From: a virus
Taxonomy: Duplodnaviria > Heunggongvirae > Uroviricota > Caudoviricetes
Strand: one strand, 5' to 3'
IMG/VR virus record: IMGVR_UViG_638341087_000024
DNA length: 36,227 nucleotides
Shown: positions 1,011-12,077 of the stretch, in pieces
Position numbering within the stretch: position 1 is the first letter of the stretch
Layout of the letters: each line of letters opens with the position of its first letter
Position numbers and translations under genes: made by a program
Notes under the pieces: model-generated
Database searches by the model: none
Told to the model about the DNA's origin: nothing
What the model saw: the letters and a program-made list of their open reading frames with translations, nothing else

Positions 1011-1988
1011 TTAAGCACCTCCTAGTGGATTAAACCTCACCGCATCCTGCAGGTAATCCGGCGCAAGATGGGCATAAATCATCGTTGTCTGAATCTTTGC
1101 GTGCCCCAGAATTTTCTGGAGCGTCAGAATATTGCCGCCGTTCATCATGAAATGACTGGCGAAGGTGTGGCGCAGCGCATGAACAGCCTGGCCGTCAGGA
1201 ACATCAGGTGCGACCGTTTTGATGACATCGCGAACCAATGAATAATCCAGCGTCGGAAACACCAGTTTCCCGCCCCGTTTTTTGATCTTTTCAAACAGGC
1301 TTTCAGAAATAGGAACGGTACGGTTTTTGCTGTTCTTCGTTTTTGAAAAAGTGATTCGACAATGAAGAACACGGCGCTGCTCCAGTGCCGCTACCTCGCC
1401 CCATCGCGCCCCGGTCGACAGAAGGATTTCGACAGCCAGCCGTTCATCGGGATTTTCAGCCAGTGCATCCAGCAACTGAACACATTCAGACTTACTCAGA
1501 TATCCCATTTCGCGCTCGTTAACCTTCATTCCTTTAAGGCCTTGAACGGGGTTATCGTTAAGAAAATGGCCGGATGAGATGAGTGCGGTAAACATCGCGC
1601 TTAACGCCCCAATCTCTCGATTTATGGTGCTGGGCTGTATCCCCTGCTCTATCCTGGACACACGTAGCTCGGTGAGCATCGTTGTATTAAGTTTATGCAC
1701 GCACGGGTCATCCATTGCCTCACTCAAGCGCAGCAATTTAAGGCGCGTGTTATGCCCTGACTTCATTAGCTGGCCGTGGTATTTCCACCACAAGTCAATA
1801 AGCACTGACAGCGGACGGCGATCAATGGAGTTTCCTTTCCACTCATTGTTATGCTGTTGCGCCAGCACCCACCGCTCATATAAAACTGCATCCGATTTCG
1901 TTTTAAATTTTTTACGAATGCGTTTGCCTTTACGCCCCTCCGGGCGCATGTCAAGAAGATACCCTCCCGGAATTGATTTTATGCTCAT
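1011..1988 (-). CDS. int: Tyrosine site-specific integrase, P2/186 family
   Basis: Translation from internal Met (MSIKSIPGGYLLDMRPEGRKGKRIRKKF...) parallels the 186/P2 integrase N-terminus. C-terminal catalytic motifs HALRHTFASHFMMNGGNI...LGH...TMIYAHL are typical of tyrosine recombinases. The longer 1011..2138 ORF would overlap the repressor gene, so the 1988 start is preferred. Confidence 0.93.
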   Translation of the reverse strand: MSIKSIPGGYLLDMRPEGRKGKRIRKKFKTKSDAVLYERWVLAQQHNNEWKGNSIDRRPLSVLIDLWWKYHGQLMKSGHNTRLKLLRLSEAMDDPCVHKLNTTMLTELRVSRIEQGIQPSTINREIGALSAMFTALISSGHFLNDNPVQGLKGMKVNEREMGYLSKSECVQLLDALAENPDERLAVEILLSTGARWGEVAALEQRRVLHCRITFSKTKNSKNRTVPISESLFEKIKKRGGKLVFPTLDYSLVRDVIKTVAPDVPDGQAVHALRHTFASHFMMNGGNILTLQKILGHAKIQTTMIYAHLAPDYLQDAVRFNPLGGA

Positions 1989-2037
1989 TCGTGAAACCCC
2001 AGCGTTACAAGACCACCATGCCCCCAGCGCTCCATGA

Positions 2038-2346
2038 TTAGCCGGGCTGTGTGCCAGTCTTGCGGGGTTTTTGAGAAGGCGATGTGCTTTTTGGCCCATC
2101 AGGGGAGAGAGACGGACTGATCTGCCCAGCAGCCTCATTTGTTTTTCCCGTCATAAGCCAATTCATGTACTTAAAAAAGCGAGGGTGATTAACAATCTTG
2201 ATAAGCACTTCGCCCCCTATGTTTTCAATCCGCCCCGTTTCATAACGACGCAAAGTGCCGATAGGCACATCAATCAGGCCGCAAAATTCTTCGCGCGTTA
2301 AATCCTCTGATTCACGAATCACTCTAATTTTTTCACCGATAAGCAT
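2038..2346 (-). CDS. Immunity repressor, P2 C-like (HTH)
   Basis: About 102 aa from MLIGEKIRVIRESEDLTREEFCGLIDVPIGTLRRYETGR...; size, HTH segment and position (adjacent to int, divergent from a cox-like gene) match the P2 C repressor. Start chosen at ATG 2344-2346 rather than the ORF-track start at 2382. Confidence 0.8.
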   Translation of the reverse strand: MLIGEKIRVIRESEDLTREEFCGLIDVPIGTLRRYETGRIENIGGEVLIKIVNHPRFFKYMNWLMTGKTNEAAGQISPSLSPDGPKSTSPSQKPRKTGTQPG

Positions 2347-3617: not shown

Positions 3618-3727
3618 GTATATTTATCTCATGGCTTGTTCTGATTATTTCGGTGGCCTGCGCCATTGGGATTATGCGAATTATTCATTCAGTAAAAAAG
3701 ATTGAACGCTTTTTCACTGACGAATAA
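3614..3727 (+). CDS. Small hydrophobic peptide (37 aa), putative membrane protein
   Basis: ATG overlaps the upstream stop (ATGA); translation MSIFISWLVLIISVACAIGIMRIIHSVKKIERFFTDE is a single predicted TM helix with a charged tail. Below the ORF-track length cut-off, found by reading the sequence. Confidence 0.35.
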   Translation: MSIFISWLVLIISVACAIGIMRIIHSVKKIERFFTDE

Positions 3728-3819
3728 CAGCTTAAACAAAACACCAGATTAAACCCGAAAACCTGAAAACTATCCGCATTCGCGGAGGTATTCGCACACG
3801 TAAATAACGGAGATATAAA

Positions 3820-4236
3820 ATGAACGCAAAAGAAGAAGGCATTATCAACACATTAAAAAAAATATCAGAAGCGGAAGATGAAATGGCTAAAGATGCCGTG
3901 AAGCGTAGCCAACATATGGCAGCACTTCACGCACTGACCATTGCAAAAATCACCGCTGACGCAGCCAAAATTATTGAGGAACAGAGCAAAGAAATCGACA
4001 CTCTTAAAACACAGTCAACAGTTGCAGTCATGAATCCGTCCAGCATTGGACGCTGCATTTATATTCTTGGTTCAGCAATGATGCCGCAATACACCATTAT
4101 TGCCGAACTGCACGGCAAATACCTGATAACGCCTTACCACACAAAAGAGTCTGAGCTTCTGACAAATCTCCGCCTGACAGAACGCTCTCAAGCTGTATTC
4201 ATTGATGACGCGCAACGTGCCGTATTTAACGCATAG
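3820..4236 (+). CDS. Hypothetical early protein
   Basis: 138-aa ORF; A-rich Shine-Dalgarno-like sequence (ggagatataaaATG) upstream. Confidence 0.5.
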   Translation: MNAKEEGIINTLKKISEAEDEMAKDAVKRSQHMAALHALTIAKITADAAKIIEEQSKEIDTLKTQSTVAVMNPSSIGRCIYILGSAMMPQYTIIAELHGKYLITPYHTKESELLTNLRLTERSQAVFIDDAQRAVFNA

Positions 4237-4726: not shown

Positions 4727-5022
4727 GCACCATCAACCACCAGAAGCTACGCGAACTGGCATTTGCCCTGCAACGAATGGCAACACCTCAAAAATTACTG
4801 GCATTTCGCGCAATGCTCTCGCCGTCTGCTGTGCTGGCATTGCTGGATGAGCTGGAGCACGCCAGAACCACGGCTCCTGCCATTCGCCTGACGCTCCATC
4901 ATGAAATCGCTGATTTCTGCGCGACATTGGAGGCGCCAGGCGAACCGGAAACGCCGGAAGCAATACAGCAAGAGCTGCTGCAACGCATTGACAAGGTTTT
5001 TGATTTTTTTCTGAACCAGTAA
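4723..5022 (+). CDS. Hypothetical early protein
   Basis: 99-aa ORF coupled to the upstream gene. Confidence 0.5.
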   Translation: MSTINHQKLRELAFALQRMATPQKLLAFRAMLSPSAVLALLDELEHARTTAPAIRLTLHHEIADFCATLEAPGEPETPEAIQQELLQRIDKVFDFFLNQ

Positions 5023-5140
5023 GAAACCAGAACATGCACACACAAAAAAACCGCTTGCCATGCCGCAATCAGTCAGGTTACATTTCCGCTGCACCCCATA
5101 AAACGGGTGCCGGGATTTCCACCCCGCTGACTAGCAAAGC

Positions 5141-5169
5141 GCACAACCGCGCCAGCGGTTTTTTTGTGC
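5141..5169 (+). terminator. Candidate intrinsic terminator in an early-region non-coding stretch
   Basis: AACCGC-GCCA-GCGGTT hairpin followed by TTTTTTGTG; outer GCACAA/TTGTGC can extend the stem. Confidence 0.45.
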
Positions 5170-5344
5170 GTACCGTATCGCCACGTCTTTTTCGCGTCAG
5201 AATTATGGTGGGGCGTATGGGGCCGACTTCGGTCGGGCCGGGTTCTTTGCTAGCCGGTTGTGGAAACCCTGTACGTCTCACCACCCCGAGTTTTCCACCT
5301 CTGGATGGTGAGTTTTTAAAACTTACTAGCAAAGAGGCCACACC

Positions 5345-5647: not shown

Positions 5648-6037
5648 ATGATTGACACTCATGACTTCACAAGATGGGTGCGCACACAGGACACCCGTCT
5701 GGCTCCCGTTCTTCAGGGATTATTTGATCTCTACATCCGTGGTCGTGACAACAGAGCACGCACCACAAAACCAGAGAATGCAGACACCCTTTATTTCACA
5801 GTAGACGACTGCTACCGCGTGGACTTCACACCACACGGGCTGGCGTTGCACTGCCTGACACCACACGGCGAATCACTACTGGCGTATTACGACTCCCCGG
5901 CCTCCGTATTTGCGGCAATGCTGGCGCATCGCACTGCTGGCGGGTGTGCCTCGCTGAGTGAATACACCGCTGAATTTAACCGCCTTTCCACCCTCTTCTC
6001 GCAGGAGTGGCAGCGCGTGACGGGATACCAGCCATGA
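5648..6037 (+). CDS. Hypothetical protein upstream of replication gene A
   Basis: 129-aa ORF; stop overlaps the A start (ATGA at 6034-6037). Confidence 0.5.
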   Translation: MIDTHDFTRWVRTQDTRLAPVLQGLFDLYIRGRDNRARTTKPENADTLYFTVDDCYRVDFTPHGLALHCLTPHGESLLAYYDSPASVFAAMLAHRTAGGCASLSEYTAEFNRLSTLFSQEWQRVTGYQP

Positions 6038-8874
6038 GTGAGTTTGCATGGAGCTGGAATGAACCACGGCCAGCCATTGATCCAGCCAGATTTACGGAGC
6101 ACAGGCAGGAAACTGAAACCGACCTGCAACGCGCCATCCGTTACTACCTTGAGGCGGACAAAAGGGCACAGAAAGAACAGGAAGCGAAGGAAGAAGCCTT
6201 TTTCGCACAATCCGCCATGGGTAAAAAACTCATGGCATCCCTTGAGGAAGCCGGACAGCGTGAAAAGCTGGCACAGAGCATCATCAGTAAGCGCCGGGCA
6301 ACAGAACAAGACCCGGTAGCCCGTGCCTTTGCCACACTGAAGGCGCTTCCCGTTTATCTGCGAGAACCTCTGAGCCGCCACCTCTCTTTCCTGCGCAAGA
6401 AGCAGGAAGCCGATCGTCAGAAAGGCAAAAAGAGCTGGCAGGCGGAACGCTATGCACGCGGAACCCTGCGCAAAATATTCGAACGTCTGGAGCGCACCGA
6501 CAGCCGCTGGCTGACACCGGGTTATCGCTCCCTTGCCGGACGCGAACGCCTGGACGATTTGGTTTACCTGCCGCAGCTCAACAAACACCAGATACAGACG
6601 CTGGCCACCATGACGGCGGCGATGTTCAGCAGCACCTTCGAAAAACTCTGCGATGGCTTTGGCGCGACTGATGGCGAACTGACCATGGATGTAACGCTGA
6701 AGGCGTATCAGATGCTGGCCCGCATGGCGTTACACCTGCACGCCATGCCTCCACATTATGACGCACTGACAACAGACAAAGACCGGAGGAACGAACCGGA
6801 CACGGAGCTGCTGCCGGGCGCAATCCTTCGCCTGACCTGTGCGGAATGGTGGAAACGCAAACTGTGGCTGTTACGTTGCGAGTGGAGAGAAGAACAACTC
6901 CGCGCCGCCTGTCTGGTTTCCAGAAAAACATCACCCTATCTGAGCCAGGACGCGTTAAGCGAGTTTCGCGCACAGCGCGAGAAAACACGCGATTTCCTGA
7001 AAAGTTTCATGCTGGAAAATGAAGACGGGTTCACGATTGATCTCGAGACGGTGTATTACGCGGGAGTAAGTAACCCGGTTCACCGTAAGGCAGAAATGAT
7101 GGCCACCATGAAGGGACTGGAACTTCTGGCCGAAGCCCGTGGCGACAGAGCGGTGTTTCTGACTGTCACCTGCCCGTCAAAATACCACGCAACAACGGAG
7201 AACGGTCATCCGAACCCCAAATGGAACGGGGCCACCATGCGCGACTCCAGCGATTACCTGGTTAACACGTTTTTTGCGGCGGTCCGCAAAAAACTGAACC
7301 GCGACGGTCTGCGCTGGTATGGCATCCGCACGGTGGAGCCTCACCATGACGGCACTGTACACTGGCATATGATGGTCTTTGCACATCCGGACGAGATTGA
7401 AACCATCGTGTCCCACGTCTGCGATATTGCCATTCAGGAGGACCGCCACGAGCTGGGCGATGACATAACTCCGCGTTTTAAGGCGGAGTATGTCGACGGC
7501 TCAAAAGGCACACCAACCAGCTACATCGCCACCTACATCGGAAAGAACTTGGACAGCCGCGCCGTGGATGGCATCGACCCGAAAACGGGCAAGCCACGCG
7601 TTGACCACGAAACCGGAAAATCAATGGCCGAGAGCGTGGAACGCGCCATCGGCTGGGCGCGCCTTCACCGGGTCCGCCAGTTCCAGTTCTTTGGTATCCC
7701 CTCCCGTCAGGTGTGGCGTGAACTGCGCCGCCTTGCCAGCCAGATGGCACGCAACCCGGAAGGCCCGCAACGGCTGAAGGATAACGCAATGGATGCGGTA
7801 CTCGCTGCCGCTGATGCCGGATGTTTTGCCACCTACATAGAGAAACAGGGCGGCGTACTTGTTCCACGCAAGAACTACCTGATTCGCACCGCCTACGACC
7901 TTGCAGATGAGCTGAACGATTACGGCGAGCAGAGTGTACAGATTTACGGGATCTGGTCGCCGCTCATCGGGGAGTCTTCCCGTGTGTGCACACATCCGGA
8001 TAACTGGAAACTGGTAAGACGTAAACCTGAAGCAGAAGACAGCGCCCGCGAAAATGGTTTTGACCTTCAGGGCGGCCCTGCCGCCCCTTGGACTCGTGGC
8101 AATAACTGTCCCCGTGTACAGGAAACAGACAACAACGGGACAGAACAGCCGGAAGAACGGCCAGCACCGTGGCCGCAGCTTCCTGACGGCATTGAAGTGA
8201 ATGAATGGATGCACTCACTGAAACGGCACGAACGCCGGGCGCTGATGCGTTCGCTGCGTGACAAACAGGCCAAAAACAGCAGCGATGAAATGCAGAACTG
8301 GACGCAGAGCCGCAAACAGCCGCGGCCTTTGCCTGATAACCACGAGTTACTCGCTAAAGAATGGCGGGAGTCTGCTGAATCTCTCGGCCTGCATATCGGT
8401 GAACAGCAGATGCTGCACCTGTTACGGGGTGGCAGTCTGTACGTTGACGGCAGCATCATTGCACCGCAGGGATTTGAAATTGTACGCAAACCGGATACCC
8501 GCCCGGACAGCCGAATCACGCAGCTCTGGCAACGCCTGAGCCGTAATCACGGCGTAAGCAGCACGGAGATCCGCCATAACCCGGTCGCCAGCTATCTGGA
8601 ACAGCTGGGGGCATCAGACCCTGAAGCCGCCGCACGCCTGGCATCCACACTTCAGCAAGACCAGAACACCATGAAAACACCCGTTACCGTGCTTTCTGAC
8701 ATGCTGCGCGCCATCCGCGACGCAGAGCACGCACAGAGAATCAGTGAAACCACTGAACGCGCCCGCCGCAAAGCATACCTGCTGCGGGGTGGCCTGACCA
8801 GTGGAAACAAAAAACAGACAGAAACGGGATTCACAAATCCCGTAAATGAGCAAAAAACGCGCCGCGATATATGA
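6034..8874 (+). CDS. A: Rolling-circle replication initiation endonuclease, P2 gpA family
   Basis: HUH-type motif (TVHWHMMVFAHP) and tandem-tyrosine motif (YIATYIGKN) typical of P2 A / phiX174 A-type initiators. Start taken at ATG 6034 (MSEFAWSW...). At about 946 aa it is longer than P2 gpA as recalled. Confidence 0.85.
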   Translation: MSEFAWSWNEPRPAIDPARFTEHRQETETDLQRAIRYYLEADKRAQKEQEAKEEAFFAQSAMGKKLMASLEEAGQREKLAQSIISKRRATEQDPVARAFATLKALPVYLREPLSRHLSFLRKKQEADRQKGKKSWQAERYARGTLRKIFERLERTDSRWLTPGYRSLAGRERLDDLVYLPQLNKHQIQTLATMTAAMFSSTFEKLCDGFGATDGELTMDVTLKAYQMLARMALHLHAMPPHYDALTTDKDRRNEPDTELLPGAILRLTCAEWWKRKLWLLRCEWREEQLRAACLVSRKTSPYLSQDALSEFRAQREKTRDFLKSFMLENEDGFTIDLETVYYAGVSNPVHRKAEMMATMKGLELLAEARGDRAVFLTVTCPSKYHATTENGHPNPKWNGATMRDSSDYLVNTFFAAVRKKLNRDGLRWYGIRTVEPHHDGTVHWHMMVFAHPDEIETIVSHVCDIAIQEDRHELGDDITPRFKAEYVDGSKGTPTSYIATYIGKNLDSRAVDGIDPKTGKPRVDHETGKSMAESVERAIGWARLHRVRQFQFFGIPSRQVWRELRRLASQMARNPEGPQRLKDNAMDAVLAAADAGCFATYIEKQGGVLVPRKNYLIRTAYDLADELNDYGEQSVQIYGIWSPLIGESSRVCTHPDNWKLVRRKPEAEDSARENGFDLQGGPAAPWTRGNNCPRVQETDNNGTEQPEERPAPWPQLPDGIEVNEWMHSLKRHERRALMRSLRDKQAKNSSDEMQNWTQSRKQPRPLPDNHELLAKEWRESAESLGLHIGEQQMLHLLRGGSLYVDGSIIAPQGFEIVRKPDTRPDSRITQLWQRLSRNHGVSSTEIRHNPVASYLEQLGASDPEAAARLASTLQQDQNTMKTPVTVLSDMLRAIRDAEHAQRISETTERARRKAYLLRGGLTSGNKKQTETGFTNPVNEQKTRRDI

Positions 8875-8919
8875 AGCGCGCACAAAACAGGCAAAAACGG
8901 GATTTCAGAATCCCGTAAA
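8822..8919. promoter_or_regulatory. Two 25-bp palindromic boxes flanking an AT-rich core: candidate parC-like centromere/operator (alternatively a replication-related site)
   Basis: AAACGGGATT-CACA-AATCCCGTAAA (8822-8846) and AAACGGGATT-TCAG-AATCCCGTAAA (8895-8919), 73 bp apart, flanking a core containing ATATAT, immediately upstream of parM. Box 1 lies inside the 3' end of A. Confidence 0.5.
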
Positions 8920-8950
8920 CGATTAATTAATCAACATAAGGAAAAGCGAC

Positions 8951-9910
8951 ATGAAAATTTGTATCGACGACGGCTCCACCAACATCAAGCTGGCATGGAC
9001 TGAGAACGGCGAACGCCGCAACGCCATCAGCCCGAACAGCTTCAAGTCGGAATGGTCTGCGCCGTTCGGTGGCACGCAGCCCGCGAACTACATGCTTGAT
9101 GGCGTGCGCTATGGTTTTGATCCGGTCAGCGATCGCTTTGTCCAGACGACCGACACGCAATACCAGTACAGTGATGTGAATGTCATTGCCATTCATCACG
9201 CACTGGTCAAATCAGGCATCACGCCACAGGAGGTGGATGTGGTTGTCACCCTGCCACTGAGCGAGTATTTCGACACAAACGCACAGCCGGACATGGCCAA
9301 CATCAACCGCAAAAAAGCGAACGTCATGCGCCCGGTGGAGTACCAGAACGGCGAAGCATTCACTATCCGTAACGTACGGGTTATGCCTGAATCCATTCCG
9401 GCTGGCTTTAAGGCACTGGCTGACATGAGTCCGTTTGAATCCCTGCTGATTGTGGATTTGGGCGGAACCACGCTGGATGTGGCAAAGGTTCAGGGGCAAC
9501 TGGCAGGTATCAGCCAGGTGTTTTGCGATCCACACGTAGGCGTTTCTCTGATGGCCGATGCCGTACTGTCGGTGATGGCCACTAACGGTATGCGCACCAG
9601 TCACCACATCGCCAATACCATTATCGAACATCGCCATGATGAAGCCTGGCTGCGCCAGCACATCCACAATGACGCGCATTACGACAGCCTGATGGCGGTT
9701 ATTCGTGAAAAGGAAGAAACACTGAAACAACGAGTGATCCGCGCGCTGGCGGGTTTTTCGGGTTACGGGCGGGTGATGGTTGTCGGTGGAGGGGCGGAGA
9801 TTGTGGCACCCGCTATCCGCGAAGCCTGCGGAGTTAATGCGACTTTCATCGCGGACGGGGTGCCACAGTTTGCTCTGGTCAATGGTTTGTACGCAATGGA
9901 CAAGGAGTAA
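8951..9910 (+). CDS. parM: ParM/StbA actin-like segregation ATPase (type II partition)
   Basis: N-terminus MKICIDDGSTNIKLAW... and internal motifs (YSDVNVIAIHHAL, VMPESIPAGF, LIVDLGGTTLDV, VMVVGGGAE, LVNGLYAM) closely track plasmid R1 ParM. Confidence 0.9.
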   Translation: MKICIDDGSTNIKLAWTENGERRNAISPNSFKSEWSAPFGGTQPANYMLDGVRYGFDPVSDRFVQTTDTQYQYSDVNVIAIHHALVKSGITPQEVDVVVTLPLSEYFDTNAQPDMANINRKKANVMRPVEYQNGEAFTIRNVRVMPESIPAGFKALADMSPFESLLIVDLGGTTLDVAKVQGQLAGISQVFCDPHVGVSLMADAVLSVMATNGMRTSHHIANTIIEHRHDEAWLRQHIHNDAHYDSLMAVIREKEETLKQRVIRALAGFSGYGRVMVVGGGAEIVAPAIREACGVNATFIADGVPQFALVNGLYAMDKE

Positions 9911-9914
9911 ACCA

Positions 9915-10226
9915 ATGACGACACCAACCAGACGGATAAGTTTCTATCTGAAGCCCGCCGCCGTCAAGAACGAAGGCGAAGCATGCGCCTGGCTGGACAG
10001 CCTTACACCAGAAGCCCGCAAAAGCGGCCAACGCGTGGCTTTTCTGGCCGGGCTGGCACTTCTGAAAATGAATCCGGCAGAGGCTTACCGACTGGCTGCA
10101 TGGGCTGACGATGAAGCGTTATCAGTGACACAAACCAGGGCAGAACGCCACATGTTACAGACAGCCCCCACCGCACAGATAACCAGTCAGATGGCCGGAA
10201 ATATCCGGGCGTTATTTCCCGATTAG
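9915..10226 (+). CDS. parR: ParR-like centromere-binding adaptor (ribbon-helix-helix)
   Basis: 103 aa from ATG 9915; RRISFYLKP...LDSL...AFLAGLALL and C-terminal NIRALFP parallel R1 ParR; directly follows parM. Confidence 0.75.
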   Translation: MTTPTRRISFYLKPAAVKNEGEACAWLDSLTPEARKSGQRVAFLAGLALLKMNPAEAYRLAAWADDEALSVTQTRAERHMLQTAPTAQITSQMAGNIRALFPD

Positions 10227-10295
10227 AACTTTGCACGGGAGGTTTCCAGTTCTGAAAACAATCAACAAATAAGGAGTCGAACGTCAAAGATATAA

Positions 10296-10325
10296 GGCCG
10301 CCTAGCTGGCGGTCTTGTGTCTTAA
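10296..10325 (+). terminator. Candidate intrinsic terminator after parMR
   Basis: GGCCGCC-TAGCT-GGCGGTC hairpin (one G-U pair) followed by T-rich TCTTGTGTCTT. Confidence 0.45.
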
Positions 10326-10356: not shown

Positions 10357-10875
10357 TTATAAAAAATAATCATCATGAGAGGAAACATGAAAATTATAAT
10401 CTCTCAATTGGGGGATAATCCCTCTACTCCAAAGCAACGTTTTATTTAGTCCAAGTCCATCTAATTTCATCATCCTGTTGCGCAGCGCAATGAATTCATT
10501 CTTGAAGTTATCTGCAGAGATGATCTTTGGGCAAAAACAAGAATACAACTTTCTATTACTTACACCACAAGCATTGGCAAGCTCATCCTCAAAATTGCTT
10601 GTTTGTTGAAATAGGTGGATTGTGTGTTTTTTCGCCTTTAATAGATTGAGATTATTCTTAAATCTATCAAGATTCTCAATCCTATCCGTATCAAAAACCA
10701 CTATGATTTCGCTATTTTCGGTTAATGCTGGCATGTATTTATTTATATTAACATTCCATAAATTAGCAATTACTATTTTCTTAATAGGATAGCCTAGCAA
10801 TGTTTTGAAATCCTGAAACAATGCTTTTTCCGTATCTCCCTCAACAAGAATAATAGCAAATTTCTTAACTGCCAT
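10357..10875 (-). CDS. Small TOPRIM-like putative nuclease (OLD / DUF4276 / DUF4435-like), distal gene of a two-gene cassette
   Basis: 172 aa from ATG 10873-10875 (the track's TTG-initiated ORF extends to 10881). N-terminal strand with conserved acidic residue (FAIILVEGDTEKALF) and a downstream DxD (IIVVFDTDRIE) match the TOPRIM core signature. Markedly AT-rich; starts 2 nt after the ATPase stop. Confidence 0.6.
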   Translation of the reverse strand: MAVKKFAIILVEGDTEKALFQDFKTLLGYPIKKIVIANLWNVNINKYMPALTENSEIIVVFDTDRIENLDRFKNNLNLLKAKKHTIHLFQQTSNFEDELANACGVSNRKLYSCFCPKIISADNFKNEFIALRNRMMKLDGLGLNKTLLWSRGIIPQLRDYNFHVSSHDDYFL

Positions 10876-10877
10876 AA

Positions 10878-12077
10878 TCAATCCTCAAATAGCATCTCTT
10901 CGATTAATGAAACGTCAGGTATTGTTGCAAAACAGTCATTTTTTACTTTATTTAAAAGATTGCGATCATTCTTTTTATGATGTGTGGTAGCTTCAACAAA
11001 AGTGGTTACACCATCTACTTTTTTAGTAAAAGTATATGAATGCGTAGGCAGATCTAAGCTCAAGATATCATAATTATGTGTGGTGTATATAAATTGACCA
11101 TATCTGCAAAGCTTAGATATAATCAGCGTGACCATCATTTTTTCTAATTCAGTATGAGTGAAGGCCATTTTCTCATCCAAAAAGTACACCCCACTGCAAG
11201 GGAAATTGAACTCTCGCTCTTCTATTTTATCTTCAAGCACTCCTGACAGGAGATGGGATATTTTTACTGCCTCATAAGTACCACGAGACAGTCTATCTTT
11301 ATTTGTTATATCACCTTCCATATCAATAATAACTCTATCTCCATTATTGAAGACTACTGAATAACCCTGCAAATCCTCCTTTCCCTCATCATCTTTAAGA
11401 GTGAGTCCTGAGACAGATTTAACAGTATTGTCAAAGGTTTTTAATATGCTATTAAGCACATTCTTCTTAATTCGTGATATTTTATCCGTGTTCTCTTGGT
11501 TTTCAGATAGAATGAAATGCCAACCAAGAACAAAGTCCAAACCCTCTAAATATTGGGAAAATTCTTTTGAGTTAGCGTTTTCGGTTGAAAAAAATCTATT
11601 TTGACCATTTAATTCAAACTTTTGCGCATCCCACACAGCATCCAGTCTTTTGGTCGTCTTTGCGCATGATTCCGAGCTTCTTAAATCAACAGATGCCATT
11701 GCAATTTTTTCTACAACAACAGACTCATCCATAGCCCTAAGCCAGACACCTGCCCTAAACAAACATTTTAAATGACTCTGGAAAAAGTCAACCTCTATAT
11801 ATGCAGGTTTTCTTTTGTCAGTAATTTTTAACGGTTCTGGATTGAAAACACCACTACTGAGAAAACGCAACACAGAAAGCATCACGCGACCAAGAGATGT
11901 TTTACCAGATGCATTAGCACCAGAAACGATGCAAACCTTTTTGAAGTAGAACTTTTCAAATCCATCAATGTACTCACCTTCCAGTGAGCTGTTGATCGGG
12001 GGTCTGGAGAAGCTTAAGTCAAGGATGCTATTTTCAAAGCAAAACAGATTATCGATTCTGATTTTTGTAAAAGCCAT
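10878..12077 (-). CDS. ABC-type ATPase (AAA_15/AAA_21-like, SMC/OLD-family fold), proximal gene of a two-gene cassette
   Basis: Walker A GANASGKTS (nt about 11895-11921), signature-like LSRGTYEAV, Walker B VYFLDE, H-loop IYTTHNYD. Shine-Dalgarno AAGGTGG 7 nt upstream of ATG 12075-12077. AT-rich relative to flanking phage genes. Confidence 0.8.
   Translation of the reverse strand: MAFTKIRIDNLFCFENSILDLSFSRPPINSSLEGEYIDGFEKFYFKKVCIVSGANASGKTSLGRVMLSVLRFLSSGVFNPEPLKITDKRKPAYIEVDFFQSHLKCLFRAGVWLRAMDESVVVEKIAMASVDLRSSESCAKTTKRLDAVWDAQKFELNGQNRFFSTENANSKEFSQYLEGLDFVLGWHFILSENQENTDKISRIKKNVLNSILKTFDNTVKSVSGLTLKDDEGKEDLQGYSVVFNNGDRVIIDMEGDITNKDRLSRGTYEAVKISHLLSGVLEDKIEEREFNFPCSGVYFLDEKMAFTHTELEKMMVTLIISKLCRYGQFIYTTHNYDILSLDLPTHSYTFTKKVDGVTTFVEATTHHKKNDRNLLNKVKNDCFATIPDVSLIEEMLFED

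Follow-up and report, generated by a model that had tools for sequence, protein, structure and literature searches.

The par locus of a P88-like prophage

The IMG/VR virus record IMGVR_UViG_638341087_000024 (36,227 nt; ‘the window’ below means this whole stretch) is a P88-like (Xuanwuvirus) P2-family prophage. At the end of its replication gene A lie two palindromic boxes, followed by the genes of an actin-like ATPase, ParM, and an adaptor protein, ParR, an arrangement that recalls the type II partition system parMRC of plasmid R1. Pfam matches to an integrase, a helix-turn-helix repressor, gpA, a P2-type capsid, a portal and a terminase, together with near-identity to phage P88, place the element among the P2-family temperate phages (Peduoviridae, genus Xuanwuvirus). 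In its par region it matches the E. coli CE0021a chromosome at 100% identity and phage P88, Xuanwuvirus P884B11, Citrobacter phiSM and others at 94–98% DNA identity. The features discussed here are the following.

1011–2138, minus strand: tyrosine integrase, intact (Pfam match)
6007–8874, plus strand: replication gene A (gpA, 955 aa; Pfam Phage_GPA, 1.5e-129), directly upstream of parM
8072–8109, plus strand: putative replication origin (ori) within gene A, homologous to the nick region of the P2 origin and separate from the boxes
8808–8849, plus strand: repeat unit 1, an A/C-rich arm plus box 1; candidate (‘parC-like’) centromere/operator
8822–8846, plus strand: box 1, AAACGGGATTCACAAATCCCGTAAA, a palindrome with its core, GGGATT-N4-AATCCC, at 8826–8841
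8850–8880, plus strand: spacer between the repeat units, with the gene A stop codon (8872–8874) and a GC-rich inverted repeat around ATATAT
8881–8922, plus strand: repeat unit 2, containing box 2
8895–8919, plus strand: box 2, AAACGGGATTTCAGAATCCCGTAAA, a palindrome with its core at 8899–8914, 52 nt before the parM ATG
8938–8943, plus strand: Shine-Dalgarno sequence of parM, AAGGAA
8951–9910, plus strand: parM, actin-fold ATPase, 319 aa (Pfam StbA_N and ParM C-terminal domain)
9901–9906, plus strand: Shine-Dalgarno sequence of parR, AAGGAG, within the 3′ end of parM
9915–10226, plus strand: parR, adaptor, 103 aa (Pfam Plasmid_stab_B), its ATG 4 nt past the parM stop codon
10287–10323, both strands: bidirectional intrinsic terminator with a 16-bp stem (−26.5 kcal/mol, z −7.3)

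The initial annotation had described an integrase-bearing P2-like prophage with a complete ParM/ParR pair of the R1 kind, and both Pfam and BLASTP bear this out. The 319-aa protein, then said to be colinear with R1 ParM, matches the Pfam StbA_N and ParM C-terminal domains at 1.8e-82 and 1e-68, respectively, and R1 ParM in the PDB (1mwk) at E 1.3e-92 over residues 2–316 (phmmer); by BLASTP the two proteins are 46.5% identical over 316 aa, and thus along their full length. Aligning the protein with R1 ParM could have revealed a loss of ATPase residues, an outcome that the initial annotation had allowed for, but all of the ATPase motifs are retained. Across the phage clade, the phosphate-1 motif DDGST (residues 6–10), the catalytic E147, the phosphate-2 motif DLGGTTLD (169–176) and the adenosine motif GGGA (279–282) are fixed. 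ParM is 96–99.7% identical to the ParM of P88, phiSM and other Xuanwuvirus records, which carry it in the same slot. Its dN/dS ratio is ~0.04–0.05 in prophages and ~0.04 against a Hafnia copy; that of ParR is about 0.2 in prophages, and both par genes are under purifying selection there. Two scans for ParM loci are informative solely on population variation: the scan of genome contigs returned only three near-identical loci, and that of viral contigs returned 80 loci, all 99–100% identical.

ParR begins 4 nt beyond parM, as first reported, and matches Plasmid_stab_B (2.4e-24). Its N-terminus is 34% identical to R1 ParR over 56 aa (BLASTP), a search against PDB sequences gave no match, and the gene is intact in 79 of 80 loci. 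Alignments divide the protein into a conserved N-terminal domain of the ParR/StbB type (residues 1–63), a putative DNA-binding domain of the ribbon-helix-helix kind, a variable linker (about 64–92) that is probably disordered, and a conserved C-terminal tail. Within the N-terminal domain, the strand RRISFYLKP is invariant among E. coli and Hafnia alleles. The tail reads N-I-x-x-L-F-P, with N96, L100, F101 and P102 conserved; in six phage lineages and R1, an N-x-x-x-L pattern stands at the extreme C-terminus in register with the R1 tail KKNAMKLIN, and N96 and L100 stay invariant even when the R1 tail is included. In R1 ParR, we take this segment to be the ParM-binding peptide (as in the structural work on 4A62). 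An AlphaFold2 (AF2) monomer of low confidence (pLDDT 56) has residues 20–61 folded, 64–86 disordered and 87–100 helical, and renders the expected DNA-binding strand as a helix; an obligate dimer would be expected to model badly alone, which may explain this result. The longer ParR proteins of the Serratia, Enterobacter, Hafnia-2 and Plesiomonas phages keep the internal ‘TTxSxIxxxIxSxxP’ helix of R1 ParR.

As a separate observation, the ParR proteins of E. coli (for example those at 3716–4030 of locus L006 and 5001–5315 of locus L010) fall into two far-diverged allele classes, one at least 85% and the other about 50–55% identical to the ParR of the window. The ParM proteins beside them are 98–99% identical, and DNA homology breaks at window position 9969, which is codon 18 of parR. 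Neither class stands apart in its DNA-reading strand, in its C-terminal tail or in its box haplotypes.

The terminator noted earlier after parR is a strong one. It marks the end of parMR, beyond which lies low-GC cargo encoded on the opposite strand. Existing labels for the two proteins largely anticipate these assignments: PGAP names them ‘plasmid segregation protein ParM’ and ‘plasmid partitioning/stability family protein’, the records of P88, phiSM and other Xuanwuvirus phages use ‘plasmid segregation protein ParM / partition protein’, and PHROGs classes both as ‘partition protein’. Source annotations elsewhere are often misleading, giving ParM as a ‘recombinase’ and ParR as a ‘peptide transporter’ or ‘chromosome partitioning protein’ (clusters P0033, P0062, P0090, P0100, P0120 and others).

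Candidate centromere boxes upstream of parM

The boxes are 25-bp palindromes with the consensus AAACGGGATT-N4-AATCCCGTAAA, each with 8-bp arms around a 4-nt spacer, and they are embedded in 42-nt direct repeats whose units are 81% identical. Both lie upstream of parM where they had first been reported, with a start-to-start distance of 73 bp, and box 1 does overlap the last codons of gene A. The motif CGGGATT-N4-AATCCCG occurs at only two sites in the 36 kb, the two boxes, against a chance expectation of 0.12. The AT-rich core that the initial annotation placed between them is not there: the 48-bp stretch has ~50% G+C, counted from the sequence, and holds a GC-rich inverted repeat around a short ATATAT.

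The resemblance to the layout of R1 parC drawn in the same annotation holds loosely. R1 parC consists of ten 11-bp direct iterons, arranged in two blocks of five that flank the par promoter. That architecture is not found here, where there are only two palindromic boxes and no recognisable promoter between them, although the half-site AA(A/T)CCC resembles the AAACCC core of the R1 iterons. Our promoter scan returned nothing between or after the boxes, but the known promoter of R1 parC escapes it as well, which makes the scan uninformative as to whether a promoter is present; its ‘hits’ in the Serratia and Enterobacter loci overlap the start codon.

Conservation of the boxes across relatives is more telling. 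Both are present in 85 of 85 P88-like loci with at most one mismatch each in the 12 core positions, and their spacing is 73 in 84 of the 85. In a Hafnia phage (Hafnia-1), all 24 core positions are identical to those of the window, whose parM differs from the Hafnia-1 copy at 43% of synonymous sites and whose upstream region differs at 27% overall and at about 30% outside the cores. Offsets from the parM ATG are −125/−52 in the window, −124/−51 in Hafnia-1 and −128/−55 in Hafnia-2; the last of these has a ParM that is 62% identical, boxes that read GGGATTGAGGAAACCC and GGGTTCATTAAATCCC, and, as its upstream gene, an unrelated 167-aa open reading frame (ORF) rather than A. Serratia and Enterobacter loci have inverted arms of 14–20 nt that start with GGGAAC at about −120 and −57. 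The Plesiomonas locus has diverged, direct, non-palindromic repeats (GCGGGACAACAnnAACCC) 72 bp apart at −133/−61. In Enterobacter and Hafnia-2, the boxes stay with parM even though one or two genes lie between it and gene A. Finally, two IMG/VR haplotypes with a different 3′ end of A regain homology just before repeat unit 1, which implies that the module starts at about 8808.

These comparisons indicate that the boxes travel with parM rather than with gene A, an observation that is new here, and they make the two boxes the best candidate for the centromere/operator to which ParR would bind. Co-variation between ParR and box sequence was absent in E. coli, where both allele classes share box haplotypes; none would be expected, because the RRISFYLKP strand is invariant. 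Between genera, the pairing of RR in ParR with GGGATT in the box and of RK with GGGAAC is suggestive only.

The overlap of box 1 with gene A had also raised the possibility that the boxes relate to the replication origin. We reject this reading. Positions 8072–8109, about 740 bp upstream of the boxes, match P2 around its annotated nick site (29892) at 30 of 38 positions (E 7e-4) and at the equivalent position in the A protein, marking a putative P2-type ori there, and the boxes follow parM, not A.

A second alternative accepts the partition genes as real but assigns the palindromes another role, as RNA hairpins or terminators (for example, shielding gene A from antisense transcription) or as sites for some other phage or host protein, with ParR binding elsewhere. 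Both boxes do resemble intrinsic terminators on the minus strand, with an 8-bp stem followed by a T-rich tail; each folds as RNA at about −11 kcal/mol (z about −4), and box 1 lies within the coding sequence of A. Their pattern of variation nonetheless fits poorly with selection on a fold. Compensatory changes are absent, variants such as GGGACT in box 1 and AATCCT in box 2 break pairs and the 6-bp core sequence is kept, whereas outer stem pairs are lost in P88, Salmonella and Hafnia. The plus strand has no T tract, and the nearest minus-strand genes already end at a strong terminator 1.4 kb away. The Plesiomonas boxes, which are direct and non-palindromic yet keep a 72-bp spacing and the same distance from parM, fit a protein-binding array and not a hairpin. 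Moreover, no further repeat family that ParR could use instead is found within 300 bp upstream. The boxes can fold, but the uncompensated pair-breaking variants and the Plesiomonas repeats lead us to set aside a hairpin or terminator role, and we regard the wider proposal that the palindromes are something other than the centromere as unlikely.

The cassette in its phage backbone

The cassette occupies one slot in a range of phages. The order gpA, zero to two ORFs, parM, parR, variable cargo and portal is found in phages of E. coli, E. albertii, Salmonella, Hafnia, Plesiomonas, Serratia and Enterobacter, and every traced ParR variant sits in this same slot between gpA and the variable genes that precede the portal gene. 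ParM proteins at 54–63% identity (Plesiomonas, Hafnia, Serratia and Enterobacter) still occupy it in P2-like phages; below about 53% identity, the contexts are plasmids and an integrative and conjugative element (ICE). In a neighbour-joining tree of ParM, the phage copies form two basal groups apart from the plasmid and ICE copies; the tree is unbootstrapped and midpoint-rooted, and we make no claim that the phage copies are monophyletic. The phage ParR, searched by tblastn against 72,556 plasmid records, hits only seven, all of which contain P88-like prophage DNA, and among these records P88-type ParR is on no genuine plasmid. Sharing of the phage slot, together with this confinement of ParR to P88-like DNA among plasmid records, indicates that parMR is a phage-resident lineage of the R1-type system and not cargo. 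Consistent with this assignment, G+C content is 53–57% in parMR, equal to that of the phage backbone, and 31–38% beyond the terminator.

The cassette is also common. It is present in 1325 of 5426 complete E. coli genomes (24%), where 1477 of its 1479 copies are chromosomal. A survey of P2-like prophages at this slot, which the initial annotation had suggested, finds parM across genera and overturns the view that a partition module is unusual in an integrative P2-family phage: the cassette is found in about a quarter of complete E. coli genomes, annotated in RefSeq and noted in print (PMC9122126). It is a standard backbone feature of P88-like phages that had been annotated and published before. 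The published notice is brief: Rousset et al. 2022 (PMC9122126) remark on the cassette in one sentence, and the phiSM paper merely tabulates the parM-type gene as a ‘fitness’ factor (PMC6456863). Beyond that remark and that table entry, we found no functional study of the cassette in the full-text literature. One outlying occurrence, a 98% identical E. coli-type parM locus on contig NZ_JBQPOM010000071.1 (L005), which is attributed to the Gram-positive ‘Vagococcus sp.’, probably reflects contamination or mis-binning.

Could the cassette instead be accessory cargo of the gpA–gpQ hotspot, serving exclusion or competition through partition incompatibility against plasmids or other phages, or through an anti-phage function, instead of segregating the DNA of the phage itself? 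It lies within a region defined as a P2 defence hotspot (PMC9122126) and adjoins an AbiL-like defence pair, and two diverged ParR allele classes beside a near-identical ParM form a pattern that would suit conflict-driven evolution. Against this, neither ParM nor ParR has a PADLOC match, the slot beside gpA stays the same from genus to genus while the genes downstream, which are the true cargo, differ in each case, the G+C content of parMR is that of the backbone, and ParM is under strong purifying selection. Nor would the ParR alleles create new specificities, because the DNA-reading strand and the boxes are alike in both classes. The exclusion function raised in the initial annotation thus finds no support, and we consider it very improbable.

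A facultative plasmid lifestyle, in which parMRC and hok would maintain P88-like phages as low-copy plasmids, has been suggested in print (PMC9122126) and is close to the stabilised episomal state that the initial annotation had also envisaged. The cassette is a complete partition cassette, the same phage has a Hok/Gef toxin gene (36087–36227), and one 34,461-bp circular PLSDB record, NZ_CP148288.1 (L001), is an entire P88-like phage including its integrase. The start of that record, however, is the att junction seen next to pdxB in chromosomes, so that the record could stem from the assembly graph or from an excised circle, and a 26.7-kb Shigella ‘plasmid’, NZ_CP049283.1 (L018), is a linear, IS1-bounded prophage fragment; large ‘plasmids’ with the cassette merely carry, or are confused with, integrated prophages. 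The distribution of the cassette, almost entirely chromosomal and with its ParR on no genuine plasmid, speaks against a stable plasmid state, as does the intact tyrosine integrase. For replication, the rolling-circle initiator gpA is all that is seen; neither a plasmid-type replicon nor copy control accompanies it. Chromosomal copies, integrase and a P2-type gpA nickase likewise set the element apart from phage-plasmids of the P1, N15 or D6 kind. Maintenance as a resident low-copy plasmid is in our judgement improbable.

Several neighbouring features deserve mention in their own right. Directly past the parR terminator, in the hotspot between gpA and portal, the AbiL-like defence pair occupies 10357–12077 on the minus strand and consists of a 399-aa AbiLi/AAA_15 ATPase (PADLOC AbiLi, 9.6e-28) and a 174-aa TOPRIM/AbiLii-like protein; its G+C content is 31–38% against 53–58% for the backbone. 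The Hok/Gef toxin ORF, on the plus strand at the right edge of the window, encodes 46 aa (Pfam, 4.1e-07); it gives this phage another R1-type ‘plasmid stability’ function and is also annotated in the P88-like NZ_CP148288.1. The gpA protein, at 955 aa against 761 aa in P2, has no P2 counterpart for residues of about 760–955, and the gpA proteins of other relatives range from 785 to 940 aa. Lastly, neither Pfam nor PADLOC gives a match for a 274-aa ORF between the tail genes and ogr/hok (34635–35459, minus strand), which may be additional accessory cargo.

Proposed function and comparison with known systems

Taken together, the locus is probably a functional type II (ParMRC-like) segregation module and a backbone component in P88-like and related P2-family temperate phages, and on balance we favour a working ParMRC module in which the boxes serve as the cis-acting site. 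Our best reading of the comparative evidence is that the ParMRC machine would act on transient circular phage DNA. We propose that ParR dimers bind both GGGATT-N4-AATCCC boxes, which at 73 bp apart are separated by seven helical turns, to form a small centromere complex with a possible second role in autoregulation of the par genes. The conserved C-terminal tail of ParR would then capture the ends of ATP-bound ParM filaments, and filament growth between two ParR-bound DNA circles could push the circles apart. The substrate would be the extrachromosomal circular phage genome present after infection or excision, and not a stable plasmid prophage; a resident plasmid is unlikely to be the normal substrate, because the phage is integrated in virtually all genomes. 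As parMR lies behind gene A on the same strand, with no plus-strand terminator-like site detected in between (scan of 8500–8950), it would form the distal end of the early replication operon and would probably be made together with the replication proteins.

Replication of the P2 type proceeds by a rolling circle from the nick made by protein A and yields monomeric circles. There are two ways in which a phage replicating in this manner could profit from the module. First, an excised, replicating element might avoid being lost from dividing cells, an effect shown for the srpMRC system of SXT/R391 elements. Second, replicating phage DNA could be spread or positioned in the cell for efficient replication, an effect shown for the AlpAC system of a Corynebacterium prophage.

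Several points weigh against a partition machine of this kind. It is not obvious why a lytic phage, whose host is dead within an hour, would need segregation, and excised, non-lytic states of P88-like phages are undocumented in the literature searched. The only phage-sized circular ‘plasmid’ record is ambiguous. At the cis site, the boxes also look like intrinsic terminators when the minus strand is scored, their number of two falls well short of the ten iterons in R1 parC, and no promoter was recognised, so that autoregulation and co-transcription with A are assumptions. Finally, the 103-aa P88-type ParR lacks, by alignment, the internal helix of R1 ParR (TTFSDIVNILRSLFP).

More tentatively, the module could be a minimal actin-type segregation machine, with a two-palindrome centromere and a shortened ParR, that partitions or positions rolling-circle monomers, a specific form of the proposal that we consider possible but rather doubtful. 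If it were true, an integrating phage that is capable of lysis would gain either a heritable extrachromosomal state (a carrier state, ‘excised but not lost’) or spatially organised replication. The system would then be a Gram-negative phage counterpart of SXT srpMRC or of CGP3 AlpAC and would offer an unusually small natural parC for mechanistic work.

As a discovery of genes the cassette adds little, since the genes are annotated and their prevalence is published. What comparative analysis adds is a delimited two-box site with support across relatives, exclusion of the origin reading and a phage-specific ParR lineage with a shortened adaptor. At its frequency in complete E. coli genomes, the cassette is among the commonest prophage-borne partition systems of this species, and the question of what use it is to an integrating phage has seemingly not been asked in the literature. 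If ParMRC acts on excised or freshly injected circles, the answer would bear on loss avoidance at excision, on spontaneous induction and on carrier states, as well as on the cellular organisation of rolling-circle phage DNA. P88 is inducible by mitomycin and phiSM is spontaneously active (PMC6456863), and with these inducible phages, a delimited two-box site and a short ParR, the question is directly testable.

Among known systems, R1 parMRC is the closest in its proteins. It shares the gene order of cis site, parM and parR, a ParM that is homologous over its full length with all ATPase motifs, and a ParR with a homologous N-terminal domain and an alignable C-terminal tail; the resemblance of the half-site to the iteron core was noted above. 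By contrast, R1 is a low-copy theta plasmid, whereas the host element here is an integrating, rolling-circle phage of the P2 family; ten 11-bp direct iterons around a promoter are replaced by two palindromes of 16–20 bp set 73 bp apart; ParR has 103 aa rather than 117 aa and no internal helix; and the phage-type ParR is absent from genuine plasmids. The records of P88, phiSM and other Xuanwuvirus phages carry the cassette at 94–98% DNA identity in the same slot and differ only in the cargo downstream of parR, which in the window is the AbiL-like pair.

Phage-borne partition systems are familiar from plasmid prophages, including parABS of P1, sopAB of N15 and the StbA-type system of the P1-like phage D6, whose ParM is 47.8% identical to that of the window. 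These prophages, however, live as plasmids, and integration is not their normal state, in contrast to the chromosomal residence of nearly all P88-like copies. In Corynebacterium, AlpAC and its site alpS belong to an integrated prophage, CGP3, and likewise combine an actin-like ATPase with a DNA-binding adaptor that is bound upstream of its own operon (PMC4446434). Induction of the AlpAC genes comes early after excision, and the phage DNA depends on them for efficient replication (Donovan et al. 2015, PMC4446434), although the actin-like lineage, the adaptor family and the host phylum all differ from those of the P88-like module.

The integrative SXT/R391 elements offer the second functional precedent. 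Their srpMRC system stabilises the element and lowers its loss while it is excised and replicating by a rolling circle (Carraro et al. 2015, PMC4489591), and at the srpC site four direct/inverted repeats of 13 bp act pairwise (PMC4489591). SrpM has only a distant relationship to R1 ParM, and SrpR cannot be recognised as a ParR (PMC4489591), whereas the phage proteins are clear R1 homologues; an ICE is, moreover, not lytic, and stabilisation is shown for the ICE but hypothetical for the phage. Nevertheless, both are ParM-type systems on normally integrated elements that use a rolling-circle initiator when excised, and in both the centromere, established for srpC and proposed for the two phage boxes, consists of a few direct or inverted repeats upstream of the ATPase gene.

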